IMG/VR virus record: IMGVR_UViG_3300025158_000014
Source of the DNA: an uncultured virus (IMG/VR IMGVR_UViG_3300025158_000014)
Taxonomy: Duplodnaviria; Heunggongvirae; Uroviricota; Caudoviricetes
DNA length: 64,000 nucleotides
Direction: 5' to 3' (one strand)
Position 1 is the stretch's first letter. The number at the start of each line of letters is the position of its first letter. The notes under the pieces were generated by a model. That model was not told the DNA's origin. It ran no database searches and saw nothing but the letters and a program-made list of their open reading frames with translations. Both the position numbers and the translations under genes were made by a program. Positions 1 to 55,247 of this stretch are shown here, in pieces.

Positions 1-153
1 GTTGCGTATCTGGGTGTGGCCAAAATCCTCAAATATCACAATGGCGAAATGGGTTGCGATTTATCAGAAATATATCGATAATAAATTGTGAGGTATTATG
101 GGGAAGAAAAGAAAATTAAAAAAAAACTAAAAAAGCATAAGAAGGGATTTTAT

Positions 154-1185
154 ATGTTTGGTATTAAAGAAAATAAAGCACTTGAACTTATTTCAGATAA
201 AGACTTTGATGATCTGATCAAACTCCATGATAAGGGCGGGGCATTTAACGTAAAAGAATCTAAATTCAATTGTTGGGATTCGGGTATTAAGATCATCAAA
301 ACTTGCGGTCATATAAATGTGTCTAAGTATCACATCGAATTTCACCTTCTTGCACATAAAAAAATTGAAAAATTAAAGAAAGTTTATCCTAATTTGGAAT
401 GGTTGGCGTACTTGGTTGGATCTGTTGACCACGATAATCATAAAGTATCTGTTACTGACTTGGTTATTCCTGATTCTCAAAAGGTTACCGGCACTAGCGT
501 TTATAACGTTGAATATAATTGGGAATCCTTGGCTGATAATAAAGTTATAATTGGTGTTATCCATAGTCATAATACCATGGGAGCATTCTTCTCAGGGACA
601 GATGATGCTTATATCAACCAAAATCATGACGTATCAATTGTGGTCTCTACTGCTGCAGGTCGTGAAATCAAAGCGCAAGTCAGGGTTAAAACTCTTTGTA
701 ATTCTTACATTCTTGCCGAAAACATTGAGTTTTCAGTAAAATACCCCCAACTTTTTGATGAAAGTGAATTTGAGTCCGAACTTTCAGAGAAAATAATTTC
801 TCATTCTTCAATTAGTAGCTGTAGAGGTATTATAGGTCGAAGCTTTTTGAATAATTTCACTGGTTATGATACCGAAAACAATGATTTTCTTGATCTTGAA
901 GAACTTGAATATGAATATCCCGAAAAAATGACCAAACTAGATATTCGTGATGAACTTCTTTTCTATTATGAAGAAGAAGATGTTGATGAGATGATTAGAG
1001 ATGGATCAGCTGTCAATGAACTTAAAATTATTCGTAAAAAAGTAAAAGAGAATTCGGATAAAGGCTTTTTGGATCAAGAGGATGGCTGGTCTTCGGTAGA
1101 CTTTGAAGAAGAATTTGAAGAAGACGAGGATGAGGACGAAGATTACGAATTTGATGATAAATTTGATTATTTTAAGTTGTTGTAG
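154..1185 (+). CDS. JAB/MPN+ (JAMM) metalloprotease-like protein with acidic C-terminal tail
   Basis: LEW...HSHNTMGAFFSGTD fits E-xn-HxH-x7-S-x2-D; ATG at 154 chosen over GTG at 88. Confidence 0.75.
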   Translation: MFGIKENKALELISDKDFDDLIKLHDKGGAFNVKESKFNCWDSGIKIIKTCGHINVSKYHIEFHLLAHKKIEKLKKVYPNLEWLAYLVGSVDHDNHKVSVTDLVIPDSQKVTGTSVYNVEYNWESLADNKVIIGVIHSHNTMGAFFSGTDDAYINQNHDVSIVVSTAAGREIKAQVRVKTLCNSYILAENIEFSVKYPQLFDESEFESELSEKIISHSSISSCRGIIGRSFLNNFTGYDTENNDFLDLEELEYEYPEKMTKLDIRDELLFYYEEEDVDEMIRDGSAVNELKIIRKKVKENSDKGFLDQEDGWSSVDFEEEFEEDEDEDEDYEFDDKFDYFKLL

Positions 1186-1234
1186 ATGATTTCATAGATA
1201 AGACTCAAGAATATAAAAATCCTCCGATGTAATT

Positions 1235-1268
1235 GGAGTATTAACTTAAAGGTTAGTACTCCTTTTTT
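1235..1268 (+). terminator. Rho-independent terminator
   Basis: GGAGTATTAAC/GTTAGTACTCC stem followed by T6. Confidence 0.75.
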
Positions 1269-1269
1269 A

Positions 1270-1277
1270 TATAAATA
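1270..1277 (+). promoter_or_regulatory. T4-type late promoter
   Basis: TATAAATA just upstream of the holin/spanin cassette. Confidence 0.7.
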
Positions 1278-1301
1278 TATATATGCTTAATGGAGGTTAC
1301 T

Positions 1302-1604
1302 ATGAGTGTCATTAAAAAAATATGGGAGTTCTTCATTCCTTTACTATCCGAGAGAAATGATAAAGGTGAATATAAACGAGCATCTTTAGGTAGAATCTCG
1401 TTCTGGATCGTGTTTGGTATAGCAATTTGGATCTGGATAGCAGGAACGGGTGATATTCAAGCATCACATTTACAAATGCTTTACATTACAGCTACCTATA
1501 ATCTCATGAAAAAAGCATCATGGTTTAATAGGTCAGATCTTTCTGCGGGACCAGATGCAAAAAATTATAGTGATCCTTATAATGATAGATCTCCAAGAAT
1601 CTAA
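1302..1604 (+). CDS. Putative holin
   Basis: Small membrane protein, GGAGG SD, directly upstream of the spanins. Confidence 0.55.
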   Translation: MSVIKKIWEFFIPLLSERNDKGEYKRASLGRISFWIVFGIAIWIWIAGTGDIQASHLQMLYITATYNLMKKASWFNRSDLSAGPDAKNYSDPYNDRSPRI

Positions 1605-1613
1605 GGAGTTAAT

Positions 1614-2039
1614 ATGTGGACAACAATACTGACTATAATTAAAAGACCAACAGTGGTCGCCATAATTGTGTTGCTTTTGTTATGCGGAACATTATACATT
1701 AATAACGCTAGACAGGATGTTAAAATTGCGGAATTGGGCACTAAAATCGCAAAAATAGAATTAAATTATTCTACTTGTAAAACCAGTAAATCTACACTAC
1801 AAGAAGCTATCAACGTTTGTAATGGTCAGTCTGATGCTTGGGTTGCAAGTAATGATGCTCTAAGAGAACAGATAACCAAATGTTACGATGAAGTTGCTTA
1901 TTGGCAAAATTTATATGATAACAAAATCTGTTTCACTAATGAAGACGAAACCCCTGTTGTCCCCTCTCAGGGTAAGGTGGTCAATGATGTTAAAAGTTCC
2001 GAAGCTGTTCATCGTATTAACATTATTTTTGGGGATTAA
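1614..2039 (+). CDS. i-spanin (Rz-like)
   Basis: N-terminal TM, coiled coil with Cys, overlaps a downstream lipoprotein gene. Confidence 0.7.
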   Translation: MWTTILTIIKRPTVVAIIVLLLLCGTLYINNARQDVKIAELGTKIAKIELNYSTCKTSKSTLQEAINVCNGQSDAWVASNDALREQITKCYDEVAYWQNLYDNKICFTNEDETPVVPSQGKVVNDVKSSEAVHRINIIFGD

Positions 2040-2295
2040 TGGATGTGGTTGGTTTTCCAAACCTGAACCTGAAATTGTTACAAAAATATCATATATTTAC
2101 GTATATAATAAATGTCCTATACCAAAAGTACCAGAATATACAAAGCTTGATAATTCTAGTCATATAGGAAGTGCTTTTAATATAAATATTCTTGTAGGAA
2201 ATGTAGAAAAAATGAAATCCTATAATAAAAGTTTGTTGGGGTCATTGGAGTGTTATGACAAACAAACCAAGGAGATAAATAATGATAGACATTGA
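1984..2295 (+). CDS. o-spanin lipoprotein (Rz1-like)
   Basis: Signal peptide ending LFLGINGC (lipobox), Pro/Cys-rich mature part, overlaps the i-spanin 3' end. Confidence 0.7.
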   Translation: MMLKVPKLFIVLTLFLGINGCGWFSKPEPEIVTKISYIYVYNKCPIPKVPEYTKLDNSSHIGSAFNINILVGNVEKMKSYNKSLLGSLECYDKQTKEINNDRH

Positions 2296-2540
2296 TTTAT
2301 TAGTTGAAAGATATATAATAGATGCTAATATTTATTCGGGGAATAAAACTCCGATGTCCAGAGTAGAAGCTTTGAGTGAGTAGATTGGAAAAATCAAAAG
2401 ACAAAGATGAAATGGGGTTTCTTGTCAGAGTTGCTAGTTTTGCCGGTGCGACTCGACATGAACTAGAAGATGCTCTTAATGGTAGAAAATATAATTTCTA
2501 TACAGCAGATATCAACAAAGAAAAGCGATGGAGATGGTGA
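2282..2540 (+). pseudogene. Frameshifted small protein with capsid-targeting-like leader
   Basis: Starts MIDIDLLVERYIID; GAGT is duplicated at 2374-2381 and removing one copy restores an ORF to 2540. Confidence 0.55.
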
Positions 2541-2755
2541 TGAATAACATATTAGATCGAATTAATGATAAACTGGATGAGATGGCAAAAGGAGATTTTG
2601 CTGGATGGGTTGCTATGTATGGTGGTAAGCGCATTGAAATTACCAAAGATCAAGCAACAGATTTATATGGAGCAAAACAGCTTGCTATCAAACAGTTAAA
2701 AGTTCCCAAATCAAAACAAGGTCTTTTAGCTATAAAGCTGGGTTATGAAGAATAA
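2540..2755 (+). CDS. Small putative internal head protein
   Basis: MNNILDRINDKLDE leader; tightly coupled in a late operon. Confidence 0.55.
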   Translation: MNNILDRINDKLDEMAKGDFAGWVAMYGGKRIEITKDQATDLYGAKQLAIKQLKVPKSKQGLLAIKLGYEE

Positions 2756-3141
2756 TGAGATTTGAACGATACATAAACGAAGGTGATGGTGATTTTGACT
2801 TAAATAAACGTATCGTTTTTTCATGGAAAGGTCATAAGGTAGTTAATACCGAGCATGGTAAGCAACGCATCAAACAACGTAGTGATATTACGGACTTTCA
2901 AATGTTGACAATGTTCAAAAATGCTATTAAGAAGATTGAAAGTAAATCCGTAAAGATAGGGGAAAAAATTGTTTTTTGGTCTAAAACATTAGGACAAGCT
3001 TTTATAGCAAAGATAGATGATGTTAAGGATTTGATATTACTTACGTTCTTTCCGAGACACAAGAAACCGAGTGGAGTAAATGATCCATATCAACGAGAAG
3101 TTGTTATAGAAGGCGAACATTTAAGAATAGTGGAGATATGA
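2755..3141 (+). CDS. Putative virion-packaged protein, possible BECR/RelE-like RNase fold
   Basis: MRFERYINE leader; TEHGKQRIKQR...ILLTFF pattern. Confidence 0.45.
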   Translation: MRFERYINEGDGDFDLNKRIVFSWKGHKVVNTEHGKQRIKQRSDITDFQMLTMFKNAIKKIESKSVKIGEKIVFWSKTLGQAFIAKIDDVKDLILLTFFPRHKKPSGVNDPYQREVVIEGEHLRIVEI

Positions 3142-3845
3142 AATTAATGAGGCTTGAGCAGTATATAACCGAAAGCATTAACGATAAGGGTATTTTCAAG
3201 GCCATATTCATGGCAGGTTCGCCGGGATCAGGAAAGTCGTTTGTAAGAAAAAAATTGTCAGGTGGGTATGAACCCAGAGTCGTAAATACCGATAAATTCA
3301 CAGAATTCTTCGGGGGGTGGAATGGTTTTAGTGAGAAGATAAAACTTCTTAATAATAATCAATTATTGTTATATTTAAATTCTATGTTACCTCTTTGGAT
3401 TGACGGAACTTCTGGTAATAGAAACAATCTCATGACAAGAGAAGGTCTTTTGTCAGGGATGGGATACGATACTGGTATGATATGGGTCAATACTGACCTT
3501 GACGAAGCAGTTAAGAGGGCACAGGAGCGCGAAGCCCATGGCGGTAGACATGTTGATATCCCTTGGTTAAAAGAAACTTACGAAAAAATTCAGAAGATGA
3601 AATCATTCTATATGACTCGTTTTCAATGGTTCTTAGAGGTTGACAATAATACTGGACAATTAACTGATGAAGTGGTACAAAATCTATACTCAAAAACACT
3701 TCCATTTTTTGGGGGACCAGTGAAAAACCCACATGGGCAAGAAATTATAAATACTTTAAAAGAGATGGGTGGAAAATACCTTACGGATATGGAAGAATAT
3801 GATATGAAGTTTATTCAAAATAGAACAAAAGCGTGGTTTACGTGA
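3138..3845 (+). CDS. P-loop kinase (zeta-toxin/AAA_33-like) with capsid-targeting-like leader
   Basis: MRLEQYITE; Walker A GSPGSGKS; WIDGT; lid RAQERE. Confidence 0.75.
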   Translation: MKLMRLEQYITESINDKGIFKAIFMAGSPGSGKSFVRKKLSGGYEPRVVNTDKFTEFFGGWNGFSEKIKLLNNNQLLLYLNSMLPLWIDGTSGNRNNLMTREGLLSGMGYDTGMIWVNTDLDEAVKRAQEREAHGGRHVDIPWLKETYEKIQKMKSFYMTRFQWFLEVDNNTGQLTDEVVQNLYSKTLPFFGGPVKNPHGQEIINTLKEMGGKYLTDMEEYDMKFIQNRTKAWFT

Positions 3846-4681
3846 TGAAAAAGTTCTACGATAAATTAAATGAGGCGACAACTCTATCTTCCGGTGGATA
3901 TACTAATCCCGGTGATGGATCTGGTATTACAGGTGATGATGATCTTCCTACTGGTACGACTGTGTTTGGTGATAAAATGGTGCCTGTTGTTGTAAATAAT
4001 CGATTAACAGGTAAAACCATAAAGTATGTACCAGCCGAGGATCTAGGTCAAGGGTGGAATTATGATGAATTTGAAAATTCATCTGGTATGGGATCAATAA
4101 AAGGGTATTCAACGACACTCTTAGGTTTAAGAGAATTATTAGGGAAAAGGTTGTTTAAACATGCCCAAAAAGAGAAACTTAAGATGCAGACTGATAAATG
4201 GGATAAGCGTTCAGGGGATCAAGATGATAGCGGTACTAATCAAACAGCAAAGATCAGTGATGATGATCCTTCAAAAATAGAATTATCTAAGGGTGGAACT
4301 GAAAGTGAAATTAAGAATGAAAAACCCGAAACAAATGATCATTGGAGAGAAGTGCCTATGAAACATATTGGCGATTTAGACATAATGGAGAAAATTAACA
4401 ATTACTTAGGGGAACCCGAAGAGATGGTTAATGAGGTGGTTGCTGATGCGAATGACAGGAAATTATTAGCACAAGCTATCATAAAAGGCAAGAACACAAA
4501 GATAAGTATTAAGAGTTTAGGTGTTCAGGCGATTGTGACCAATTCTGAGGCTGAAACTATTGTAACATACCAAAAAAATGAAGATTTTACTCTAATTTTA
4601 GTGGATATTGCTGATACTTTGGGCATGGAATTTAAATTAACCAAAGATGGTGGAAAACAAGCTTTCCGTTTAATAAAATAA
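3845..4681 (+). CDS. Hypothetical protein, putative internal head protein
   Basis: MKKFYDKLNE leader, long ORF. Confidence 0.55.
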   Translation: MKKFYDKLNEATTLSSGGYTNPGDGSGITGDDDLPTGTTVFGDKMVPVVVNNRLTGKTIKYVPAEDLGQGWNYDEFENSSGMGSIKGYSTTLLGLRELLGKRLFKHAQKEKLKMQTDKWDKRSGDQDDSGTNQTAKISDDDPSKIELSKGGTESEIKNEKPETNDHWREVPMKHIGDLDIMEKINNYLGEPEEMVNEVVADANDRKLLAQAIIKGKNTKISIKSLGVQAIVTNSEAETIVTYQKNEDFTLILVDIADTLGMEFKLTKDGGKQAFRLIK

Positions 4682-4691
4682 AACCCTGTTA

Positions 4692-5033
4692 TCAATCGAA
4701 CAGGGTTTCTTTATACCTCTGACCTTCTATGATATTGTATTCTGTCACATCAAAACCTTCAATGTTGTAATATTTGAGTCTAGTCTCTGAGTTTTTGGTT
4801 AGATTCTTCTCTGTATCGCAAATATCCCAAACAATTGCACCATTATCTTTATCTGCATGAAGTCTCAAGGTTCGTCCTATACTCTGTAAGATTCTTATCT
4901 TACTTTTAAATGGTGATGCAAGTATTAAGTGTCTCAGTGATTTAATGTTTATTCCCTGCTGGAAAATCCCGTAAGTGGCGATAAGAACTATTTTCTTTGC
5001 CACGAAATCCTCCTTTACTTCTGTTGGTTTCAT
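4692..5033 (-). CDS. uvsW: UvsW helicase, C-terminal fragment (motifs V-VI)
   Basis: IATYGIFQQGINI and QSIGRTLR; alternative GTG start at 5003 with an AAGGAGG SD. Confidence 0.85.
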   Translation of the reverse strand: MKPTEVKEDFVAKKIVLIATYGIFQQGINIKSLRHLILASPFKSKIRILQSIGRTLRLHADKDNGAIVWDICDTEKNLTKNSETRLKYYNIEGFDVTEYNIIEGQRYKETLFD

Positions 5034-5050
5034 GCGTCACGTATCTCCTG

Positions 5051-6208
5051 TTATGCTAGCTTTTCCCAAGCTATATTTTGTGGACTTTTTAGTTCTTGTA
5101 AACGAACCGTGGCATTTGCACCAAATACTCTATTTGCGTATCTCAACCACAAATCCATAGTTGAGGTTTCCTTAGATCCTTTTCTTCCGATCTTCACTTT
5201 CAATACAAAACCAGTAGCTTTTTTATCAGTAATATTATATGAAATATCTTTAATTTCTAAGGGGTTGTTTGTCAGTTCTGATCTTGAAGGAACATAATAT
5301 AGACTCTTCTGTGACTGATAAAAATATGGTTTAACGGAAAAGTTTAGCAATTTTTCTATAACATGTGTGTTTGTTAATGCATTAGATATTAGAGGCAAAA
5401 CACCATTAGCAGCCGCTTCAAATACCTGCTTTGATAATGTGCTGAATTCTTGGGTATTTGCTGTTAAATGTGCCCCAAACACAGAATGTAATTCAATATT
5501 ATGCCCAACTTCGGCTAGCAATCCACTTTCTGTGTAATCTTTACTTTTGTTTTTAGCAACAACAGTATATGAATTATCCGTATTATATCTGATATTATAG
5601 TGTGGTGACCTTTTATCGGGAACATAAATTTCTCCCTTCATACTCTTGGCTTTTGCTAGAGTTGACTTCATAACCACAGTCTTCCATTTATCATATAATC
5701 CCGTACTAACTTTATCACAATAAAATTTTATACTATCAACTCCTTTGGGGTTTTCTATACCAAGATGTGAGGGTGACAAATTAGATAATGTGATACCTTG
5801 CTTCCCTTTAATCGAAATGCCGAACGCAGAAGAACCAACAAATTCAACGTCAGCTGGATTACTATCATCACCCTTGGCATTTGTACCGCCCACCCAAAAT
5901 AATTTTGGTATTGATCCGACTTTACCTGTGACTAATTTTTTTCTGGACTTTGATATTTCATAATATGTATTGAATACGTTAGCGTTATAGTTTATAGGAA
6001 GAAATTTAAGTATTTCTGAATAAACGTGATCAGGATTTTCCAATTTATTGGAATCCCACCATAAACTAGGGTCAAACTCAAGACTGGTAGGATCAAATCC
6101 TTTTAAATTCTGAGTCTTTGTAGTATATGCTAGAAGACATGCTAATTCGGTATTGTACCGTTCGGCACCAGACTTCCCACCCTCAAGTAAATATTGTTCG
6201 AATTTCAT
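5051..6208 (-). CDS. Putative PD-(D/E)XK restriction-endonuclease-like protein with capsid-targeting-like leader
   Basis: MKFEQYLLE; PADVEF...GISIK; overlaps the methyltransferase stop codon (ATGA). Confidence 0.55.
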   Translation of the reverse strand: MKFEQYLLEGGKSGAERYNTELACLLAYTTKTQNLKGFDPTSLEFDPSLWWDSNKLENPDHVYSEILKFLPINYNANVFNTYYEISKSRKKLVTGKVGSIPKLFWVGGTNAKGDDSNPADVEFVGSSAFGISIKGKQGITLSNLSPSHLGIENPKGVDSIKFYCDKVSTGLYDKWKTVVMKSTLAKAKSMKGEIYVPDKRSPHYNIRYNTDNSYTVVAKNKSKDYTESGLLAEVGHNIELHSVFGAHLTANTQEFSTLSKQVFEAAANGVLPLISNALTNTHVIEKLLNFSVKPYFYQSQKSLYYVPSRSELTNNPLEIKDISYNITDKKATGFVLKVKIGRKGSKETSTMDLWLRYANRVFGANATVRLQELKSPQNIAWEKLA

Positions 6209-7029
6209 AAGTTATCTTTATTATCCTCGTATAATTGTATAAATTCCCCTATTGTAAACGTGGGGCTTATTGCAGTTGTATCATACGAATATTTATACAA
6301 TAAATGATTTAGTTTTTTTAACTTTGAAACAATAATATCACTGTCAACTTTTAAGAATATAAATTGTGTTATTGGGGTTGCATAGCTAGATTCAATTAAC
6401 TCACCTACACGATTGCTGTATCCTGTTCTACGAATAGCATAGTTAGTGTTGTTTATATCAAATTTATTCCCCTGTGGTATGACTTGGAAATCAGATGAAT
6501 GTTTTGGTAATATTATTTTCTTTCTAGGAAAAAAATCTTTTTTCCAGACCTGAATACAACATCTAGCGTTTGTACCTGATACAAATGATCCAATATCAAC
6601 ATTCAATTGCTGATCCAAGTGAAATCTTGTGTCAAGCTGGTTAATTATATATGCTTTTTTAAACGATCTTGGTAGTATAAATGCTATAGTATCACTATAC
6701 TTTGCTGCATGATTAAAGAATTCGATAGCCAATTGCGCTCTGAATCCAAATGGCGGATTGCCGATGGTTAGAATTTTCTGACCATCTTTGGGGCGCATAT
6801 CAAAATCAAAGAAGTCCATTTTTTTTATAACATCATCATTTTCGGGTGCGATATCTAAGGCAATTAGCTTTGATGCATCTATAAAATTACATATAGAACC
6901 ATCACCAGCAGAGGGTTCTATTATGTGGTCATAATCATCCTGATTTATAAGGCTCACCAATTTCTTCGAAACATCAACATTTGTGTAATGTTTGTCTAGT
7001 TTTTCTTTTGTCTGTTTTTGTGTCATCAT
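6205..7029 (-). CDS. Amino (probably N6-adenine) DNA methyltransferase, gamma motif order
   Basis: IIEPSAGDGS (motif I) followed by IGNPPFG (motif IV). Confidence 0.85.
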   Translation of the reverse strand: MMTQKQTKEKLDKHYTNVDVSKKLVSLINQDDYDHIIEPSAGDGSICNFIDASKLIALDIAPENDDVIKKMDFFDFDMRPKDGQKILTIGNPPFGFRAQLAIEFFNHAAKYSDTIAFILPRSFKKAYIINQLDTRFHLDQQLNVDIGSFVSGTNARCCIQVWKKDFFPRKKIILPKHSSDFQVIPQGNKFDINNTNYAIRRTGYSNRVGELIESSYATPITQFIFLKVDSDIIVSKLKKLNHLLYKYSYDTTAISPTFTIGEFIQLYEDNKDNL

Positions 7030-7058
7030 TTATTATGTGTCACACCTTATATTCGTAA

Positions 7059-7862
7059 TCAATCTTTACTAATATTACTTGTAATCCAATCGTCAGCAAT
7101 ATCATCATCAATGGTGATTTCTGATGCTTTCTTGAAACTGCCATCCGTGAGAGGAATATTTTCATCAGGACTAATTTGTATCTCAGTTTCACCGAAAAAA
7201 AGTTTAATCACCTTTTCACCCTGATCATCCATACATTTACGCCATCTTTCTCTTTTTGTAGCAGAATCTTTACCACTTAAGAACTTTATTTCATGATCTT
7301 TAAGGGTCTCATCTTCCTCTAAAACCGTCTTTAATGTTTCACCCTCATCCGACACCTTACCTACAAGAATCAACACATTACCGTCCGAATTCTTAATGAT
7401 GTCCTTGATTAGACCCTGACGATATGAATTATTAAAACATATATCCTTTATTTCGTTATAATTAGCTAGACCTTGGCGATGTGAATTATCAGAGCATATA
7501 TCCTTTTTTCCTGTATGACTACTTCTCGGTGGTACTTTATATTCAATATGAACCATTTTAATGAATGCTTCTGCAACGTAACCCATCTTGGCTAATCTTG
7601 AGGCACCATATTCACGTAATACCGGACCGAGATAGGATTGAACTTGTAGACAATCCAACTGTTGAGAGGGCATTGTACCAGTAAAACCAAATCTCCATCT
7701 TGCATTAGGACACATTTGTAACAATTCATTTAATACGATTGCTTTGCAGCCATGACAATTGGATACAACTATATCATTGGCGATATAATTGTTATTATTT
7801 TTTACATGGAGATTGTATACCTTATCAGGTTTTTCAATTTCAGTTCTTTTTACGAGTCGCAT
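7059..7862 (-). CDS. uvsW: UvsW middle fragment: C-intein (35 aa), helicase motifs II-IV, Hint-like tail
   Basis: MRLVKRTEI...VYNLHV...YIANDIVVSN|CHG; FGFTGT; FLSGKD. Confidence 0.85.
   Translation of the reverse strand: MRLVKRTEIEKPDKVYNLHVKNNNNYIANDIVVSNCHGCKAIVLNELLQMCPNARWRFGFTGTMPSQQLDCLQVQSYLGPVLREYGASRLAKMGYVAEAFIKMVHIEYKVPPRSSHTGKKDICSDNSHRQGLANYNEIKDICFNNSYRQGLIKDIIKNSDGNVLILVGKVSDEGETLKTVLEEDETLKDHEIKFLSGKDSATKRERWRKCMDDQGEKVIKLFFGETEIQISPDENIPLTDGSFKKASEITIDDDIADDWITSNISKD
7758..7862 (-). mobile_element. Split intein C-half
   Basis: Block F/G pattern ending Ser-Asn, followed by +1 Cys. Confidence 0.85.
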
Positions 7863-8772
7863 TTAATTTCCTTGTGGTTTCTTCATCAAACACACCATCA
7901 GCGAGACGATGAATGTTATCTGTTATATATTCTTCTGTTAAAATGTCATAAGTGTATCCGTTAAGATAACACCATTCAGACAAACACTCTTCTTTGGTAC
8001 GTTCTACCTTCCCATTAACTCTACACATTGGTTTTAGTTCTACAATGTGTTTTGTGTTATGATTAACAAAATCCACGATATATATCTTATCTTTGCCTTC
8101 AATATTATACGGTATTCTCAAGGTTTCGTATTCATAATCTTGATTGAAGTGGTGAAAGAATGCTTCCCATGACGATCTATATTTTTTATTGTTATAATAT
8201 ACTTGCCAATGTGTATGTGAATTATGAATATTTGGTGTAAAATCTCCATTCATAATCAACTTTTTAACAGAAACAGATTGTTTATATCTTTGCTCTTTTG
8301 TAGGTATAACACCAAATGAAGGGTTGCCTTCACCCATCCTATCACAAGAAAGTTTTAACAAACGGTCATCATCTTCTTTTGTTAGTCCTTTATTCCAAGG
8401 AGATAATCCTGTTTGTATGTCTTTATTCCAAGGGTTACCAGTGTTTAAGTTGTTACGTATCTTATCACCATGTTTGTCCTGACAACCAAGACCGCCCTTT
8501 TTTGCAATATCATGCTTCATTTGTCTATAATATTTTTCCCTTATATTAGAGTCTATGTTATATAATAAATCAAACATGGTTACATATGGCGATTTTAATA
8601 TTCTTCTGTTAAGAGTAATTACATCGTTTCTTCTTTCAATAACAAGACCATTAGACAATACAGATTTCGTTGGGCTGTAGTTCTTTACTCTGAGTAATTG
8701 ATTATTTTTTTCTAATACATCGTTTAGTTTGTTTCTATGGTTGTTATGTCTTGATATTTCGTTGTTTCTCAT
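7840..8772 (-). CDS. Free-standing homing endonuclease between the split-intein halves
   Basis: NUMOD-like PWNKGLTK/GEGNPSFG repeats; YRSSWE...YIVDF...IVELKP (TnsA-like PD-(D/E)XK). Confidence 0.75.
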   Translation of the reverse strand: MRNNEISRHNNHRNKLNDVLEKNNQLLRVKNYSPTKSVLSNGLVIERRNDVITLNRRILKSPYVTMFDLLYNIDSNIREKYYRQMKHDIAKKGGLGCQDKHGDKIRNNLNTGNPWNKDIQTGLSPWNKGLTKEDDDRLLKLSCDRMGEGNPSFGVIPTKEQRYKQSVSVKKLIMNGDFTPNIHNSHTHWQVYYNNKKYRSSWEAFFHHFNQDYEYETLRIPYNIEGKDKIYIVDFVNHNTKHIVELKPMCRVNGKVERTKEECLSEWCYLNGYTYDILTEEYITDNIHRLADGVFDEETTRKLNATRKKN

Positions 8773-8805
8773 AATACATACCCTCTTGTGATGTGAACTT
8801 ATAGG

Positions 8806-8813
8806 TATTTATA
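8806..8813 (-). promoter_or_regulatory. T4-type late promoter for the endonuclease and downstream fragments
   Basis: TATAAATA on the minus strand, 34 nt upstream of the ATG at 8772. Confidence 0.65.
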
Positions 8814-8818
8814 TTTTT

Positions 8819-9112
8819 TTATTCAAACCCTATAACATCATGTTCACAAGTTAACTCATCTGCCCTGATATAACCTTTATCGGTAAGTATTTTATGATTA
8901 CCTGTAACTCTTAATATTTCACCACCATCAAATTCTAACTCATACATTCTCTCGTTAGATGATATAGTCATGTTTTCGTATACATCTTCAATTATATCTT
9001 GTTCATATTCATTAGTTTCGGTGTTATACGAAATAACGATGTCCCCTATAACCAAATCTTTTATCTTTTTATAGCCATTGTCGGTTTTTATGAGAGTATC
9101 GCCATCAACACA
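8819..9112 (-). mobile_element. Split intein N-half (97 aa)
   Basis: Block A CVDGDTLI and block B VTGNHK, then stop. Confidence 0.85.
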
Positions 9113-9772
9113 CTCATCCACAATAACCATATCCATATGTTCCATATAGTGTTTTACATTGTTTAGTGACTGCCAAGTACTGATAATTAAAGGGTTGTTC
9201 CATTCCTTCCACTTATCACCAACACGCCCAACAGTAGACATATCCACTCCATATTCTTTCATATCACCATAGAACTGAGTGACCAGACCAACAGAAGGCA
9301 CAATAATTATACCGTTTTTTGTTAAATTCTTTTCTTGTAGTGCTTTAACAACATATGATATCATTAAACTTTTACCACTGGCCGTTGCAGACCTGATGAT
9401 GCCTTTACCTGTCTTAAGACACGCAGAGATACAATCATCTTGATAGTTATATGGTTGAAATTTTAAGTTTTTGTGATATTCGGGTTTGATTCCGACAAAT
9501 AAAGACTTTACTTCGGATGAAAGTGTATAAGGTAATTCTGACCATTCTTTCTTATGATACTTAATTAACTCTAATAGTAGACCATAAGGTATAGTCCTCT
9601 TCACGGAGTCCATAAGACCAACTTTACCATCCCAGCTTCCGCACTTATATTGTAACATAAACTTATAACCGTCAACGTAATGACGGAAATATTCTTTTAC
9701 TTCGGTGAGATATGTCCAATTTTCTGTATCGATTCTGATATGAAGAGGATCATGTAATTCTAAATTAACCAC
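8819..9772 (-). CDS. uvsW: UvsW N-terminal fragment fused to an N-intein
   Basis: WDGKV, YQDDC, SATASGKS, IVDE|CVDGDTLI...TGNHKIL. Confidence 0.9.
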   Translation of the reverse strand: MVNLELHDPLHIRIDTENWTYLTEVKEYFRHYVDGYKFMLQYKCGSWDGKVGLMDSVKRTIPYGLLLELIKYHKKEWSELPYTLSSEVKSLFVGIKPEYHKNLKFQPYNYQDDCISACLKTGKGIIRSATASGKSLMISYVVKALQEKNLTKNGIIIVPSVGLVTQFYGDMKEYGVDMSTVGRVGDKWKEWNNPLIISTWQSLNNVKHYMEHMDMVIVDECVDGDTLIKTDNGYKKIKDLVIGDIVISYNTETNEYEQDIIEDVYENMTISSNERMYELEFDGGEILRVTGNHKILTDKGYIRADELTCEHDVIGFE

Positions 9773-9775
9773 TAA

Positions 9776-10258
9776 TCAATAACCGCCTTTACCGTTCTCA
9801 CAGAATAATTTCATATTCCATTGTAATTTATCCATTGCTTGCCAAATAGTCTCGAAATATTTAACCCTCATTTCCTGCTTTCTGACCAAACCTTTTAATT
9901 TTATCAGATCAGGATCTTTAGGTAAATAATATCGTTCTATTTCAGTTTTTGTTAAAGTGACCGCACCGTCTTTCAATGATATATATTTATCACCGATCAT
10001 CTGTGCCAAACGGTCTTCGACGGTAGATAACTTGGACTGTTCTTGCAAAAATTTGAGGCGAAAGTCTTTCATGTGGAACGATAGACGTTGTAATCTTTCT
10101 TGAATATTAAATTCATTAAAAGTAAGAAGATCATATACATTATATTCCTCTTCCAACTTTTTAAATATACTATCCTCGTTCAATTCTTCACGTATTTTAT
10201 TGAGGACTGCTTTAGTTTCCTCGTTATAAACACTTAACATGTGAGTGTAATCTGTCAT
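9776..10258 (-). CDS. uvsY: UvsY-like recombination mediator
   Basis: Helical protein with LTKTEIERY...DPDLIK...QWNMK, adjacent to uvsW as in T4-like phages. Confidence 0.6.
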   Translation of the reverse strand: MTDYTHMLSVYNEETKAVLNKIREELNEDSIFKKLEEEYNVYDLLTFNEFNIQERLQRLSFHMKDFRLKFLQEQSKLSTVEDRLAQMIGDKYISLKDGAVTLTKTEIERYYLPKDPDLIKLKGLVRKQEMRVKYFETIWQAMDKLQWNMKLFCENGKGGY

Positions 10259-10531
10259 ATAATAAACAAATCCTTTATTTTTTTTTTTGAAATGGACGTA
10301 AACATCAAGATTTCATTTGATCAGTGTAGCCGGGGTTACTTCCAAAAATTCCATAAGAACTATTCCATTGTCATTGACACAATGTACCATATTTAGTATA
10401 AATAGTAAATATAAAGTAGTGAAATAAAATGAAAAATTTTTGGGGTATAGAGGTTATAAAAGTTATGAACCTGTAAGATGACATAGCTGCTTTTGTGTGA
10501 TAGTATGCTAAAAAACTGTGGAGTAAACGCT

Positions 10532-16922: not shown

Positions 16923-17456
16923 ATGAACGCGAAAAAAACAGCCAGACGTAAAGCAATTCTTGATGGGATTATGGAATCACTAAAACATGATGAGGTTTTT
17001 GACCGTGTAAAATACAAACAAAAGACCGAATCAGAACTACAAAACCGTATGGCAGTACCTTTGAATAGAACTGTTGCAAAACTGTTCGAGGAATATAAGG
17101 GTTATAACCATGACCGTGCTGTATCAGAGGCACGTGTGAGATTTGCAAGTGAGGAAGATCCGAATACAACAGTCAAAAACTTTATGTTCATGGGGGTACA
17201 ACATCGCCCAGACTTCACTATAGATTTTGATGATATTCGTATCGCAGTTGAAATCAAAAAAGGTCATTCAGGTCAATCAGTCCGTGAATGTATTGGTCAA
17301 TCCGTGGTATACAACACAAATTATGATTTTACATGTGTTTTATACGTGGATACCTCCGCCGATGAGCGTATTAAAAACTCCCTTAACGGTGAGCGTGAGA
17401 AAGAATTGATTGAATCTCTTTGGAAAAATCATAATGTAATGTTGGACGTTATTTAA
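16923..17456 (+). CDS. PD-(D/E)XK nuclease-like protein
   Basis: RPDF...IAVEIKK...GQSVVY. Confidence 0.6.
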   Translation: MNAKKTARRKAILDGIMESLKHDEVFDRVKYKQKTESELQNRMAVPLNRTVAKLFEEYKGYNHDRAVSEARVRFASEEDPNTTVKNFMFMGVQHRPDFTIDFDDIRIAVEIKKGHSGQSVRECIGQSVVYNTNYDFTCVLYVDTSADERIKNSLNGEREKELIESLWKNHNVMLDVI

Positions 17457-27599: not shown

Positions 27600-27815
27600 T
27601 TAGACTAAATCTCTCAACTGTTTTTCTAATTTTCTCATTTCTGTTTCTATTTTCATTATCTTCTTCTTTAATTCTTTATCAGTCACCCTAACAGAAACAT
27701 ATCTAAAATATTCATCAAACTCATTCCATTTAATTAATGCACTTTCTATTTGATGATAATCATTTATGTCTTTTTCACCAATATATTTCTCTGTGATATA
27801 ATTTATATTATTCAT
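27600..27815 (-). CDS. Small putative internal head protein
   Basis: MNNINYITEKYIGE; GGAGG SD. Confidence 0.6.
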   Translation of the reverse strand: MNNINYITEKYIGEKDINDYHQIESALIKWNEFDEYFRYVSVRVTDKELKKKIMKIETEMRKLEKQLRDLV

Positions 27816-27826
27816 TTATAATCCTC

Positions 27827-28138
27827 CTATGATATGTAAGCATTAAGTTCGTAAGTATTTCTGTCCGTATCTCTGTTATAAACCTGAAAATGAAGAGCTT
27901 TTCGTTGCTTTTTACCACCTTTGTATAGCGGAATGCTCAATTTAACAGTTTTACCTTTTGAAGGTTTCTTTGGTCCTGTTCCTATAATATCAAATGTCTC
28001 AGAATCATCAGTCTCATATCCCATTCTTTTTGCCAAAGCAAGAGCCTCGTCAGCAGCAGAGGTATACGTGTCATGATACAATTCATAATCACTTTTGGCT
28101 TCATTAATATACTTTGTTATTTTGCTTACAATATCCAT
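27827..28138 (-). CDS. Putative internal head protein
   Basis: MDIVSKITKYINE leader; late operon. Confidence 0.6.
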   Translation of the reverse strand: MDIVSKITKYINEAKSDYELYHDTYTSAADEALALAKRMGYETDDSETFDIIGTGPKKPSKGKTVKLSIPLYKGGKKQRKALHFQVYNRDTDRNTYELNAYIS

Positions 28139-28150
28139 TTATTTTCTCCT

Positions 28151-28405
28151 TTATATCATCACATAAACATATTTATTGTCACTATATTTTTCCAATGATA
28201 TATCACGAGTATATCTATGACCTCTTTTATCCTCAAGGGTAATGCTATCAGAATCGGGTAAAAGGTTCTTGTCAATTAAAATGGTTTGATTTGATTGTCT
28301 CACCCCTTTTACTTTCTTTGTTCTGGATATATGACCCAATACATCGAAAACTTCTGTAGTGGATTCACATAGGTATTGCTCCACGATAGAATCAATGTTT
28401 TTCAT
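28151..28405 (-). CDS. Putative internal head protein
   Basis: MKNIDSIVEQYLCE leader. Confidence 0.6.
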   Translation of the reverse strand: MKNIDSIVEQYLCESTTEVFDVLGHISRTKKVKGVRQSNQTILIDKNLLPDSDSITLEDKRGHRYTRDISLEKYSDNKYVYVMI

Positions 28406-39969: not shown

Positions 39970-41496
39970 TTAGTTTTCTTCTCTGTCCTCTTTCTCTACC
40001 TTCTTCTTTTTTTTATTCTTGATATAATCAGGTCTATTGGTAACCATATAAACTCTAGCAGGATTAACCACTGATCCAGATCTTATCATAAAATCTTTAT
40101 TGATTAGAACAGGTGTTGTTTTATGACTACGATCATTTAAATTAAACGGTACTTTTGAATAATTAACACCTTCAAATGTGACATTTAATTCTACAACTAC
40201 CCTCTTCTCATCCAATTTTTCTTCCGAATCAGAATTATTTTTCATTCTAATTTCGTTTAATTTCGTCCCTGACATCTTTTTACCCATAGTAGACCATGTT
40301 ACCTTAGACCCTTCGACATTAACGTCTTGTGCGTCAAGTGAGGAGCTACCAGCGGCATTTCCGGTGTCAAACCGAGCATGTAATTGACCGATACCCTCGA
40401 TCTCTATGGATTCAATCACACCAATCTGCTGTGGTGGTCTATTCCAATTTATGGTATTCTTTGCATATTGCATCACCATATCAACAATATCTAATTTGGT
40501 CAGTTCCTCTATACCATCTGTACCGGGGGAAGAGTTAACCTCAAGAATATATGGGTTTCCTTCAACATCAAACATGATATCCACGCCGCACCATTTACAC
40601 TGAACTGATTTTGCAGCTTTAACTGCCAATTCTCGTATTTCCTTGGTTGGTCTATATTTACCAGTCTTTCCGCCTAGATGAACGTTTGAACGGAAATCGT
40701 TATCAACGACCTTTCGCTTCATTGCCGCAATAACCTTGTCACCCAAAACATGAAGTCGAACATCATGGTCAGACTTAACGTATCTCTGCAACATCATCTC
40801 AACTTCATCACCAACAGCCCATATAGCTTGAAGTGTGGACTTTAATGCTTTGTACTCATTGACAATGAATACACCTTTCCCCTGAGTACCACTTAATGTC
40901 TTAACAACAACAGGAAATCCACCGCCAACTTTTTTGTGTGCCAACTCAAGCATTTCCTCTGTAGGAACTAGCGCAGTATCAGGAACAGGAAGACCAGCTT
41001 CAACTAGCTTTAATGTTGTTAAATACTTGTCTTCACATGTTTGAATAGAAGACTTTTCGTTCAAGAAACAAAAACGATATCTCTCAAGACGTGACATAAG
41101 GTTTTGTGAATATCGATGAAACATAACACCGCGTCTGGCAATGACAAAAGTTTTATCACGATCAATCTCATGACCTTCTTTATCACCAACGTTATAGATC
41201 TTGATAGTTCCTTCGTCGCCTTTCTCAAGATAAGCAGTGTCAGCGAATGCTGTGTAAAAAGGAACATCATTTTTGCTACACCATTTCTCTATTTTGATGA
41301 TAGTTGGGTTCTTTTTTGACATCTTTCTATTCTTGGAATCGGTAGATGATGTTAGTATAAGGATATTAAACCCTTCAACCTCATCAATATCAACCATTTC
41401 CTCTTCGGGATCAGAGTCAATACCATCTGCTTCATGGATAACAGAATTTAACTTTAACTTTTCAAATTCTTCTTTAAGTGACATTTGATACCCCAT
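39970..41496 (-). CDS. rimK: RimK-family ATP-grasp ligase fused to a retropepsin-like (RimB-like) protease
   Basis: DKY, GTQGKGV, FRSNVHLGG, CGVD, LEVNSSPG; C-terminal ARFDTGN. Confidence 0.85.
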   Translation of the reverse strand: MGYQMSLKEEFEKLKLNSVIHEADGIDSDPEEEMVDIDEVEGFNILILTSSTDSKNRKMSKKNPTIIKIEKWCSKNDVPFYTAFADTAYLEKGDEGTIKIYNVGDKEGHEIDRDKTFVIARRGVMFHRYSQNLMSRLERYRFCFLNEKSSIQTCEDKYLTTLKLVEAGLPVPDTALVPTEEMLELAHKKVGGGFPVVVKTLSGTQGKGVFIVNEYKALKSTLQAIWAVGDEVEMMLQRYVKSDHDVRLHVLGDKVIAAMKRKVVDNDFRSNVHLGGKTGKYRPTKEIRELAVKAAKSVQCKWCGVDIMFDVEGNPYILEVNSSPGTDGIEELTKLDIVDMVMQYAKNTINWNRPPQQIGVIESIEIEGIGQLHARFDTGNAAGSSSLDAQDVNVEGSKVTWSTMGKKMSGTKLNEIRMKNNSDSEEKLDEKRVVVELNVTFEGVNYSKVPFNLNDRSHKTTPVLINKDFMIRSGSVVNPARVYMVTNRPDYIKNKKKKKVEKEDREEN

Positions 41497-43283: not shown

Positions 43284-43943
43284 TCACAATAACTTGGTCA
43301 ATTCATCCTCAAAAAACGGGTCTATCAGGTAGTATTCTTTGCATCTCCACATAGATTCAAAAGTCCTCTGACTTAACCACGTTTTCATACCACTATCTCT
43401 GAAACCTTCAACCCTTTTCTTCCATTTTTCAAGTTTCTTACGATCATAGTCATCATCCCCATTAGTACCAGCAATATCATTAATAAGTTCACCATTTTTA
43501 TCAAAGTTTATGACACGATGTGGTGTGTTTATAAATAAATCATCAACGTCAGGGTTATATATGTATTTGTATTGACCTATTGGCATGAATATCAATCCGT
43601 AACCATAAGTATAAGTCTCGCTATAATTATGTGTTGCAAATACACCAGTATTACGAGGCATCCAACCAAATTTCTTTTTAAATATTTTATTCAAATAATC
43701 CTGTATGTCCTGTCTCATGTTCATAGGTTTTCTATTCATACGAGGTTTTTTCTTGAATATGGCAAATTTATCTTTATCATTCTTACCCAGAGACCTAACG
43801 CCACGATAGAAATACCAATCAGTACCAAATTCACGAAGATATGGTGCGCATTTTCTTTTAAGTTCATCAGCAATCTCTTCGACAGAATTAAATTCAACCC
43901 TTTCAGCCGAGGATTCTTCGGTTATATATCGAACTAATCTCAT
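43284..43943 (-). CDS. ADP-ribosyltransferase-like paralog
   Basis: MRLVRYITE; FYRG, GVFAT..YG, FESMW. Confidence 0.55.
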   Translation of the reverse strand: MRLVRYITEESSAERVEFNSVEEIADELKRKCAPYLREFGTDWYFYRGVRSLGKNDKDKFAIFKKKPRMNRKPMNMRQDIQDYLNKIFKKKFGWMPRNTGVFATHNYSETYTYGYGLIFMPIGQYKYIYNPDVDDLFINTPHRVINFDKNGELINDIAGTNGDDDYDRKKLEKWKKRVEGFRDSGMKTWLSQRTFESMWRCKEYYLIDPFFEDELTKLL

Positions 43944-44590
43944 TAATACCTCTCAATGCCCAGATATTTTGATAATTCATCTATGATAACCATGTCAACA
44001 TAATAGTAACCATTAGGGCAATTAAATATAACCTCTCGTGCTTGTTTATCACGCCAAGCTTTTTTTAGATTACCGCCGAAATAACCATCAACCAAAAAAT
44101 CAACATCCTTCTGTTCCAAAAAATACAAAGGATCTTTATAACGTAATCTAAGTTCAGATTCTATTTGGCTTTGTGCTATAAAAAAATCATAATGATCTTC
44201 TGAATACACAAACTTATACCCATTCACAGGAAACATTAAATATAAGTTTTTTCCGTACCCCCTAGACATACCGGGTCTTGTTGCGGTAAACACTCCCTCA
44301 CTTCTGACTTTCCAACCAAATTTTTTCATGAATGATTTGTCTGCCATATCGTGGACACGTTTTCTTGTATCAACAGGTCTTCGATTCAGCCTTGGTTTTT
44401 GTTTAGAGATAAAAACGCCCCTTTCCAATTGTCGGTTAGTCCCTCTATAAAGAAACCCCCCAGTCTCTCTTATAAACAGAGAACAATCCTTTTGTAATAT
44501 TGTTAAAACATTATCAAGATCTGGATCCTCTCCACGTATTCTGGTACCTTGCTCCGTGATAAGGTCTGTTATGTACTGTTCAAATTTCAC
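43943..44590 (-). CDS. ADP-ribosyltransferase-like paralog
   Basis: MKFEQYITD; LYRG, GVFTAT..YG, REVIF. Confidence 0.55.
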   Translation of the reverse strand: MKFEQYITDLITEQGTRIRGEDPDLDNVLTILQKDCSLFIRETGGFLYRGTNRQLERGVFISKQKPRLNRRPVDTRKRVHDMADKSFMKKFGWKVRSEGVFTATRPGMSRGYGKNLYLMFPVNGYKFVYSEDHYDFFIAQSQIESELRLRYKDPLYFLEQKDVDFLVDGYFGGNLKKAWRDKQAREVIFNCPNGYYYVDMVIIDELSKYLGIERY

Positions 44591-44620
44591 TAAAAATACC
44601 CTCTACAATTCAACTTAATT

Positions 44621-45364
44621 TTATTGGGATGCGGCGATTTTCTCTCGTATTTTTCTGACCGCAGGTAATTCCGATTTTGCTGTATGTTTAATTCCAGTAT
44701 AAAATATGGCTAACATAAGGTTGTATATTGTTCTACCCAACCATGGAACAGAAATAATAGATCCCGTGGCAAACAAACCAATCAACATCAGCCCGTCAGG
44801 AGATCCAAAAATGTCCTCAAGACTATAAGCACCCTTCAATGCTAATGCTATATTTGTGAAATCGAAATCATAATCCAAATTACCTATAAATGTCATCTGA
44901 GTCCACATAAAAAATAACAGCCCTGCAACAACCGATCCAGTAACTTTCTTAAGTAGAGGATACTTTTCGGCAAACTCATCAAACTTAATCGTCCCCTGTC
45001 GTATCTTCTGATATATTTTGGTTTTGTATAATTCACTGAATATCTCAAACAATCCTTGTCTAATAAACATCGTCAGAGTATTGACAGACTTAAAAATAAC
45101 TTTTAATGAAAACCCAAATGATTTAAGCAACTTGAACATATTCTTTTCACTAAAAGCATTGATTATCTCTACGGCACTTAGACCAAAATCAAATATCATC
45201 TGATCGAGAATTTCGCCCGCCTCTTTAAACTTCCTGACAATAAACCCGACCGCCTTGTCCTTTAAATCAACAAGACCCTCGTCTACACCAAAGTAATAGT
45301 TTATTCCTTGGATGTATTGTTCATATGTAACATCAGATTCATTTATATACTGCTCAAATCTCAT
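44621..45364 (-). CDS. Membrane protein with capsid-targeting-like leader
   Basis: MRFEQYINE; C-terminal hydrophobic helices. Confidence 0.55.
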   Translation of the reverse strand: MRFEQYINESDVTYEQYIQGINYYFGVDEGLVDLKDKAVGFIVRKFKEAGEILDQMIFDFGLSAVEIINAFSEKNMFKLLKSFGFSLKVIFKSVNTLTMFIRQGLFEIFSELYKTKIYQKIRQGTIKFDEFAEKYPLLKKVTGSVVAGLLFFMWTQMTFIGNLDYDFDFTNIALALKGAYSLEDIFGSPDGLMLIGLFATGSIISVPWLGRTIYNLMLAIFYTGIKHTAKSELPAVRKIREKIAASQ

Positions 45365-46100
45365 ATAAATATTCTCCCTGTGAAGAACTAACCATCACCG
45401 TCTTTGTTGACCACCACACTTCCTTGTTAAACGGTAATACATCACCAACCTTTCGCAAAACAAACCCATTCTTTGCCGGATCAAGGTAATCAGTACACGC
45501 CTGTAACATGTTACCATTGTAAAACTCCTTAAAAAAACGGGACACTGGCTTATTTTTATGCGGCGAGCTTAATACCTCATCCATTTTTTCAAATTGTTTA
45601 AGTAAAGTTCCCCATTTATCAGAAGGTGATTCCTTTATATACGTTTCGAATGCAAACTTAAGATCTTCATTGAAAGTATCAAGCGAAGGACTAAAGGAAT
45701 CCCATAAATCATCCTCTGGACATACACCAATATCAGTACCATCAATGGGTAGCATTATATAAGTTTTTCCTATGTGACGATCGACCCTGCTGGGGCTTGA
45801 AGCACCAATTACTGACTTACTTCTCTTTGGATATTTGTTCCATAACGACATATTATCCATCATAACAGTATAATAATTATAGGTATATCGAGAATCTCTT
45901 TTGAATCTTGATGGTTCAACAACACCATAGTCATTTGTGTAATTTTCGGAACTTCTATATAAACCACGACCCTCTGTATACATTCTCAGTGAATTACTGC
46001 ATCTCTTTTTAATGAATTCAAACGCATCTTCACGACTGATCGGCTTGGTTCGACCACTAGTTCGTTTAGAATCCTCTATTAAAAAATTTTCTAATCTCAT
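45354..46100 (-). CDS. ADP-ribosyltransferase-like paralog
   Basis: MRLENFLIE; LYRS, SVIGASS, KEVWW. Confidence 0.5.
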   Translation of the reverse strand: MRLENFLIEDSKRTSGRTKPISREDAFEFIKKRCSNSLRMYTEGRGLYRSSENYTNDYGVVEPSRFKRDSRYTYNYYTVMMDNMSLWNKYPKRSKSVIGASSPSRVDRHIGKTYIMLPIDGTDIGVCPEDDLWDSFSPSLDTFNEDLKFAFETYIKESPSDKWGTLLKQFEKMDEVLSSPHKNKPVSRFFKEFYNGNMLQACTDYLDPAKNGFVLRKVGDVLPFNKEVWWSTKTVMVSSSQGEYLYEI

Positions 46101-46115
46101 AGTAGCTCCTAAATA

Positions 46116-46952: not shown

Positions 46953-46970
46953 ATCAAATCTCCTTTGTTT

Positions 46971-47804: not shown

Positions 47805-48174
47805 AATGATTTCTTAAGCCTTTGTAAGAATTTCGTATCAAATGCATTATTTTCGAATGATACGATATAATATTCATAACATTTGAACATGGCCTCATGG
47901 GATGACTCTGCTTTCCACCCATGATATTTAAAAAACAACTCATCCATGAGATCATGTAAATGTTTCGGAGTGTCTTTAGGAACCATTTTTCGTCTCGACC
48001 TGACTTTTAGGATATAATCACTCATCTCTTTTTGTGTGCCACGATATACGGGGTTATATGGTTGTACTCCAAACTCTTTAATGAATGGTTGACAATCCCT
48101 TTTGAGGACATCAATGATATCATCCATTTCCAGTTCGCGCTTTGTTGGTTCTTCTTCATTTTATACAGTTTCAT
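47801..48174 (-). pseudogene. Internally deleted ADP-ribosyltransferase-like paralog
   Basis: VYRG...GWK joins directly to HEAMFKC, so the central part is missing; leader is frameshifted. Confidence 0.6.
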
Positions 48175-54998: not shown

Positions 54999-55247
54999 TT
55001 AACCTTTTACTTCTTTTAAGATACAGTCGATACTGGAATACAGATCATCATTTGAGACACCAAGTGAATCCAAATATTCCATCCAGTTGAGTACCTCGTG
55101 AAGTTGCTCGTACATTTCTGGTGCCACGGATTCTATTCTTTTTGTCTTGGCTTCTATGCCGCAGTTGCAAGGCAGGTGAGGATATAGAGATCCTGTTTTG
55201 TTTTTGAGAATGTTACAAGTTGGTTTGTGTTCATTTATTATGTTCAT
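54999..55247 (-). CDS. Hypothetical protein
   Basis: Coupled to the methyltransferase stop codon. Confidence 0.5.
   Translation of the reverse strand: MNIINEHKPTCNILKNKTGSLYPHLPCNCGIEAKTKRIESVAPEMYEQLHEVLNWMEYLDSLGVSNDDLYSSIDCILKEVKG

Follow-up and report, generated by a model that had tools for sequence, protein, structure and literature searches.

A putative nuclease with a capsid-targeting-like leader, paired with an untagged methylase inside a fragmented uvsW gene of a T4-like phage

Why should a phage furnish a probable nuclease with what looks like an address label for its own head, and leave the DNA methylase encoded beside it unlabelled? The question is raised by two overlapping genes of the uncultured virus IMGVR_UViG_3300025158_000014, of which a stretch of 64,000 nucleotides (hereafter the window) was analysed. 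A sequence-only reading had taken the two genes for a restriction-modification-like pair whose nuclease is packaged and then injected with pre-methylated phage DNA, either to cut host or competing phage DNA at entry or to drive the spread of the cassette. Packaged restriction enzymes have been described for algal giant viruses, and the head cargo of tailed phages includes restriction inhibitors. If the proposal is true, phages use restriction-modification offensively, some "orphan" phage methylases have unrecognised partners, and the nuclease represents a new restriction-enzyme family. Compared across related genomes, the feature is real, a new combination of known parts with good comparative support.

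The window phage is T4-like. Its uvsW gene is matched by Pfam, and two further genes, assigned by reading the open reading frames (ORFs), we take to be uvsY and a gp41-like helicase. A second record, G002, overlaps positions 1-10294 of the window (99.96% identity over 10.3 kb) and encodes both a gp21-type prohead protease (PF03420, E 3.5e-25) and gp23 (E 4.4e-108). The features of the locus are collected in Table 1.

Table 1. Features of the methylase-nuclease locus and of the uvsW pieces around it (window coordinates).
Feature	Position	Strand	Remarks
uvsW piece 3 (Helicase_C, E 1.3e-5), N-terminal extension MKPTEVKEDF	4692..5033	-	downstream border of the cassette
Probable PD-(D/E)xK-type endonuclease, 385 aa	5051..6208	-	E21, D120, S132-x-K134; no library family
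Nine-residue capsid-targeting-like leader MKFEQYLLE	6182..6208	-	predicted cut after E9, then GG
Amino-methyltransferase, 274 aa	6205..7029	-	motif I EPSAGDG before motif IV NPPF; no leader
Candidate T4-type late-promoter box TATAAATA	6290..6297	-	inside methylase 3' end, -89 to -82 from nuclease ATG
uvsW piece 2: C part of the split intein, middle of the helicase, non-helicase tail of about 52 aa	7059..7862	-	
Free-standing endonuclease (TnsA-like, NUMOD3; E 0.00097)	7840..8772	-	at the first uvsW split, between the intein halves
uvsW piece 1, ends in intein N part	8819..9772	-	Pfam UvsW_N, DEAD, Hint

The identity of the methylase is the more straightforward half of the problem. Its two motifs lie at residues 38-44 (EPSAGDG) and 90-95 (GNPPFG), and both are invariant in an alignment of 20 methylase relatives, the first in the form E-P-x-A-G-x-G; from the motif order, the enzyme presumably belongs to the gamma class. 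Profile searches returned PADLOC MTase_II (PDLC03256, E 6.3e-29), phrog_5172 (E 8.3e-40) and phrog_799, a DNA methyltransferase (E 1.8e-10), and no match in Pfam or NCBIfam. As in type II restriction-modification, the methyltransferase has a gene of its own, and this gene encodes both motif I and motif IV. The two structural claims of the sequence-only reading hold at this locus: the NPPF methyltransferase is coupled to the 385-aa ORF through an ATGA common to the stop of the one and the start of the other (bases 6205-6208, minus strand), and the leader stands on the nuclease ORF only, the N-termini of the methylase and its 19 aligned relatives having been read and found to carry none.

The 385-aa ORF requires more careful argument. 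The core of PD-(D/E)xK nucleases places a glutamate on a helix, an aspartate at the start of a strand and a (D/E/S/Q)xK motif on the next strand, and the ORF shows this residue pattern both in its conservation and in the secondary structure of its model. The stretch PADVEF...GISIK spans residues 118-134; E21, D120, G130 and K134 are invariant in 50 of 50 aligned homologs, S132 is kept in 49, and N143 and D158 in 46. In the model (pLDDT 92.3, pTM 0.86), E21 sits on helix 11-29, D120 falls just before strand 121-124, and S-x-K lies on strand 130-133. A nuclease fold is therefore likely. Structure prediction, the check proposed earlier, gave a confident model with a PD-(D/E)xK-like core, but the matches to HinP1I and MspI were weak; the word "nuclease" is backed indirectly by invariant residues of catalytic type, while no known restriction enzyme was matched significantly in fold or profile.

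The searches behind that qualification were broad. A VIA structural search, for which a Z of 8 serves as the caution line, returned HinP1I (Z 5.0, rmsd 4.3, 176 aligned), MspI (Z 4.7, rmsd 5.9, 177 aligned), ACE1 (Z 5.5, rmsd 6.2, 156 aligned), Dna2 (Z 4.8) and AdnAB, all weak and under that line, and its top rows interleave restriction-type folds with unrelated ones, every Z being below 8. Foldseek against the PDB and a second look with pdb_via gave no match, and the seven matches to viral-model structures at E<=0.001 are all unnamed. No family was assigned by Pfam, PHROGs, NCBIfam or PADLOC, and PDB sequences yielded only weak antibody matches (E 0.004 or worse). Searches with four family members found no homolog in cultured phages or plasmids, a GTDB pattern scan with the leaderless alignment found no cellular one, a search of 401 genomes of one phylum gave 0 matches, and a metagenome scan recovered the window phage only. 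The Atlas indicated a cluster with 19% RE_HaeIII members for the nuclease, as well as a cluster of similar structure (TM 0.76) whose members are mostly bacterial. Membership of the HaeIII family (PF09556) was nonetheless rejected at profile level: none of 50 members matches PF09556 at E 0.1, and hhalign with a four-sequence alignment gave probabilities of 0.2% (E 0.3, the same as an unrelated control) and 1.6%. The D...GxSxK stretch can be set in register with four HaeIII-family proteins, at the 0.2% probability that the control equals. The ORF thus resembles HinP1I, MspI and the HaeIII family in the order of helix glutamate, aspartate and x-x-K strand, and in having a type II-like methylase adjacent, but none of these resemblances reaches significance (Z 5.0 and 4.7, hhalign 0.2-1.6%), and the HaeIII-family loci compared have a C5 methylase (PCQ motif) where the window pair has an amino-methylase.

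What sets the nuclease apart from its partner is its N-terminus. Ten residues suffice for capsid targeting in T4, where gp21 cuts after L/I-X-E (PMC9026906, available text). The leader MKFEQYLLE fits the T4 internal-protein propeptide, being about ten residues long and ending L/I-X-E like those of IPI-III and Alt, and the window phage likewise has a gp21-type protease in its genome. A strict form of the leader pattern, composed after the ORFs had been seen, matches 8 of 109 window ORFs and none of 200,000 random internal positions, so the leader is not a product of chance. G002 contains 10 matching ORFs among 224, of which 3 are common with the window and 7 additional. With 15 such ORFs in the phage, the leader is common, and the nuclease gene is therefore not singled out by it. 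Other bearers include a run of paralogues on the minus strand at 43284-48899 (phrog_11975, phrog_15932 and phrog_12810), which are probably head cargo, and two further clusters, at 2528-4681 (plus strand) and 27600-28405 (minus strand), which include a P-loop kinase-like protein with matches to AAA_33 and Zeta_toxin. A RimK-like ATP-grasp protein at 39970-41496 (minus strand; phrog_2599, E 7.6e-27) has a longer leader-like N-terminus.

Within the nuclease family, 71 homologs divide into 34 that bear a leader, 13 that are leaderless, 8 that begin otherwise and 16 that are fragments or unscored. Ten of the leaderless proteins form one branch (SH-aLRT 100) of a quick tree built without the leaders, and proteins of this branch start M-G-G or M-G-A, precisely the point that a cut after LLE would leave. 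Three of the "other" homologs have a leader-like stretch ahead of an intact MGGK start, and residues 1-10 are the sole unconfident part of the nuclease model (pLDDT 36). From these three observations the leader emerges as a separable add-on. A bacterial origin of the leaderless branch was considered but gained no support, the loci found being viral, although the Atlas does list the mostly bacterial cluster noted above.

A head protein should also be made late. In T4 the late box reads TATAAATA, its first base being variable (PMC1524935, available text). The candidate box in the window phage lies far upstream of the nuclease and coincides with codons YKY of the methylase; since 16 boxes occur in the window against 11.2 expected, this single copy is weak evidence on its own. 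The family is more informative. In 18 of the 24 clusters recovered by the leader-type search, ATAAATA occurs no more than 100 nt upstream of the nuclease start, in 13 of them exactly at -14; the corresponding figures are 1 of 16 for methylases, 25 of 221 for other ORFs and 0 of 6 for leaderless loci. One locus, L068, has no late box within 150 nt upstream, and a sigma-70 promoter scan stayed at chance level. The late box goes with the leader, as expected of head cargo, and the case for late expression rests on the family and not on the copy in the window phage.

How regularly the two genes meet bears on whether the methylase is a true partner. The 39 viral loci of the nuclease family, window phage included, collapse to 24 clusters at 90% identity, and methylase neighbours were called by motif IV pattern, with families checked afterwards. 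A methylase is the direct neighbour in 10 clusters, lies within 4 kb in 13 and is absent in 11 (two of which are cut off downstream); methylases fill 10 of 46 adjacent slots compared with 7 of 208 farther ones, against a background of 1 in 234 ORFs at 13 uvsW loci and 1 in 224 in G002. The ten adjacent methylases comprise seven of an SPPY family, two of a DPPY family and the NPPF gene of the window. As seven of the ten belong to one methylase family in related phages, they are not independent cases; at least three unrelated methylase families nevertheless adjoin the nuclease, and a fourth does so by motif at L280. In the leaderless branch, each of the six loci where the gene is whole is followed immediately by a methylase (5 SPPY, 1 DPPY), which amounts to about two independent cases because the five SPPY loci are in closely related phages. 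The closest other nuclease (57%) and the closest other methylase (67%) are both on one contig of 11,489 bases, which suggests linkage.

These same counts can be turned to a different account, in which the nuclease is packaged and injected while the neighbouring methylase is an orphan anti-restriction enzyme that shares insertion hot spots with it, the nuclease recognising a structure, a host modification or RNA, or being kept harmless in some other way. We regard this as unlikely, but the strongest of the competing explanations. It would accommodate the 11 of 24 clusters with no methylase nearby, the several unrelated families among the neighbours, and the non-restriction nucleases ACE1, Dna2 and AdnAB among the VIA rows. 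Nine partial records without an adjacent methylase (14-83% complete) also bear on it: an SPPY methylase is found in only one of them, G611, where it lies about 51 kb from the nuclease, and a PF01555 search of five of the nine matched G611 only. Against it, adjacency is seen on both sides of the deepest split in the family tree, the SPPY methylase occurs on either side of the nuclease gene, and both methylase families studied usually adjoin some nuclease-like gene.

This last point deserves elaboration. Among the best 80 of 175 SPPY loci (40 clusters), the nuclease lies within 3 kb in 9, and a different nuclease-like ORF, which is leaderless, is adjacent in 16. The commonest neighbour of the SPPY methylase, at L202 (2285-3004) and in 15 other clusters, is a leaderless ORF of 226-262 aa with the pattern HE...FPDF...VEAK, a candidate further restriction-enzyme family. 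The NPPF methylase subfamily behaves comparably. In the T4-like L067 and L068 it is followed by an unrelated 425-aa leader-bearing ORF with the pattern RVKE...NPADLW...ISLK, the leader in L068 being out of frame by one base. The two (L067, 4773-6050; L068, 4796-6092) form a second, unrelated leader-bearing nuclease-like family coupled to this methylase subfamily; they match Synechococcus phage hypothetical proteins faintly (E 0.004-0.01), and folding the L067 protein from its sequence alone gave no usable model (pLDDT 30). In L069-L073 the ORFs ahead of the NPPF-subfamily methylase are leaderless, and one of them matches NERD and Hjc weakly; in L079 a PADLOC REase_II (E 2e-10) comes after a methylase that is more distantly related. 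Nuclease-like ORFs beside related methylases gave no match to the 385-aa family. Two side observations belong here: at L049 (3146-4831) a phage that also has topoisomerase-like genes carries a leaderless nuclease-like ORF of 277 aa and, after it, a stop-interrupted relative of the methylase, and the window itself holds, at 16923-17456 on the plus strand, a 177-aa ORF with a PD-(D/E)xK-like stretch, RPDF...VEIKK, and no PHROG match. It is tempting to generalise that uncultured T4-like phages with ordinary bases repeatedly made injected weapons out of restriction-modification pairs, leader and late promoter having been gained by two or more unrelated nuclease families while the methylase stayed untagged, so that host or rival DNA would be cut ahead of any phage gene expression; this is a proposition about which our doubt slightly exceeds our belief.

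The genomic setting, which was absent from the sequence-only reading, concerns how the pair travels. It interrupts uvsW, which is broken into three pieces over 4692-9772 (minus strand), and stands between pieces 2 and 3, one separation being a split-intein split with an endonuclease and the other a non-splicing break. Fractured genes with split inteins are a known layout, which the first uvsW split fits; ORFs 62% identical to its TnsA-like endonuclease stand at the same place in L054 and L057. Pieces 2 and 3, in turn, are contiguous in 12 of 13 relatives. The remaining case is instructive, since L057 has the same second split with the same tails, including the MKPTEVKEDF-type extension of piece 3, and a GIY-YIG gene (PF01541, E 2.6e-7) in the gap. 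Also in L057, the third uvsW piece (5933-6284) has its frame broken just past the conserved start by a short insertion, through artefact or decay. By eye, piece 2 of the window phage has a tail like the latter half of an intein N part that lacks the catalytic residues; this tail may join pieces 2 and 3.

There is precedent for such an arrangement in phage Aeh1, where the essential nrdA gene is split by mobE and the pieces gain non-catalytic tails that hold the product together (PMC3045599, available text). As there, a free-standing nuclease gene breaks a gene essential to the phage, and the pieces are tailed; unlike Aeh1, the gene is uvsW, with two splits, of which the second contains a methylase-nuclease pair or, in L057, the GIY-YIG gene. 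One relative that is 98% complete has neither methylase nor nuclease gene, and the nuclease is present or absent at otherwise syntenic loci (L249 and L252 versus L247 and L271). Judged by these comparisons the pair is a mobile passenger, and at the uvsW site one nuclease has probably taken the place of another, in one direction or the other. The suggestion that the enzyme drives spread of the cassette is therefore upheld as to mobility, seen in the uvsW gap and in the absence from a relative, but host, competitor and cassette-free relative cannot be told apart as its target.

One could go further and make selfish spread the main role, the nuclease cutting unmethylated relatives in mixed infection and recombination repair copying the cassette into the uvsW allele in the manner of a fractured-gene homing endonuclease, with the leader serving only for an early strike. 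The location in a split essential gene, the GIY-YIG gene at the same split, the contiguous alleles of 12 of 13 relatives, the 98% complete relative without either gene and the coming and going at syntenic loci all speak for this. The homing signature of a conserved break in uvsW with intact alleles in relatives is, however, confined to the window locus: no other family member is inside uvsW or at one fixed site, and a methylase is often adjacent, where a homing enzyme would have one site and no partner methylase. A short-site enzyme with its methylase would, moreover, cut throughout a rival genome and not at the insertion point. We consider this account improbable as the main role, although it, the orphan-methylase account and the packaged pair may overlap. 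Just as improbable, in our judgement, is that the ORF is inactive as a nuclease, its D...SxK look being chance, or that its leader is no packaging signal and it is a late, cytoplasmic or structural head protein, for which the lack of a significant match in any library and of a homolog in cultured phages speaks, and against which stand the invariant acidic and lysine residues in catalytic order, the methylase linkage, and a leaderless, ancestor-like start to which leader, cut motif and late box were added jointly.

The explanation we favour, with confidence evenly divided between acceptance and doubt, is that the genes constitute a mobile type II-like restriction-modification pair whose nuclease would be packaged and injected, a phage counterpart of the chlorovirus virion enzymes. 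The earlier proposal has gained indirect support from the invariant residues of catalytic type, the leader ending in L/I-X-E, the gp21-type protease, gp23, the late box, the enrichment of methylase neighbours and the mobility of the cassette. As the nuclease alone of the two bears a head-loading tag, the phage probably injects a ready-made restriction enzyme together with its own protected DNA. The methylase, presumably expressed from the uvsY-uvsW transcript, would methylate a short site on progeny DNA, its enzymatic identity resting on profile matches. The nuclease would be transcribed late and its leader would load it into the prohead, as such leaders do in T4, and the gp21-type protease of the phage would cut after LLE and produce the GG start seen in leaderless relatives. 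Ejected with the methylated genome, it would then cut unmethylated sites in the next cell, by analogy with chloroviruses, most likely on the host chromosome and also on co-infecting phage DNA. The pair moves as a unit, filling the uvsW gap that a GIY-YIG endonuclease holds in another phage.

The closest known parallels differ in instructive ways. In chloroviruses the virion holds restriction endonucleases and not methylases, and the enzymes are believed to degrade host DNA within minutes, but they did not account for the exclusion of other viruses (PMC7019647, available text). PBCV-1 and the window phage thus have in common a virus-encoded pair of which the endonuclease and not the methylase is particle-bound, in the window phage by prediction. 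They differ in that the one is a eukaryotic giant virus and the other a tailed T4-like phage with an unrelated, unnamed nuclease family, and in that the available text of PMC7019647 describes no capsid-targeting leader on the chlorovirus enzymes, whereas the window nuclease has one. T4 heads, for their part, can carry EcoRI and staphylococcal nuclease as engineered fusions, and natural T4 cargo in the available text of these sources includes the restriction inhibitor IPI but not a restriction enzyme with a partner methylase (PMC9026906, PMC3012670). Full-text searching, outside which most subscription journals lie, turned up no paper on a tailed phage whose own restriction enzyme is targeted to the capsid and accompanied by a methylase.

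Finally, the composition of the phage DNA bears on why such a pair might be useful. Over 217 kb of the phage several sites are strongly avoided, among them CCWGG (O/E 0.07), GGCC (0.30), CTGAAG (0.09) and several six-base sites; in the window and G002, avoidance is near-total for CCWGG, GRGCYC-like, GWGCWC-like, CTGAAG, CCCGGG, GACGTC and TCCGGA. The two records covering the phage yielded no match to a gene of the thymidylate-synthase family. Given the many avoided restriction sites and the lack of such a gene, the phage probably does without the global base modification of T4, and we infer that its DNA consists of ordinary bases exposed to host restriction. T4's global modification is then probably not a means by which this phage could tell self from host, and if such pairs have repeatedly become injected weapons, sequence-specific methylation would do the self/non-self job that glucosyl-hmC does in T4. 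The avoidance of so many sites suggests that restriction systems abound in the hosts, and might aid the search for the host; avoided words differ between phages and probably reflect their hosts. From word counts no recognition site could be assigned to the pair. CCCAG, chosen post hoc out of thousands of words, is low in both phages with the NPPF methylase subfamily (0.42 and 0.45) and stands at 0.98 in a cassette-free relative. A second methylase-like ORF in the window (55244-55975, minus strand), untagged and with a DLPY motif recognised by eye, could also protect the genome.
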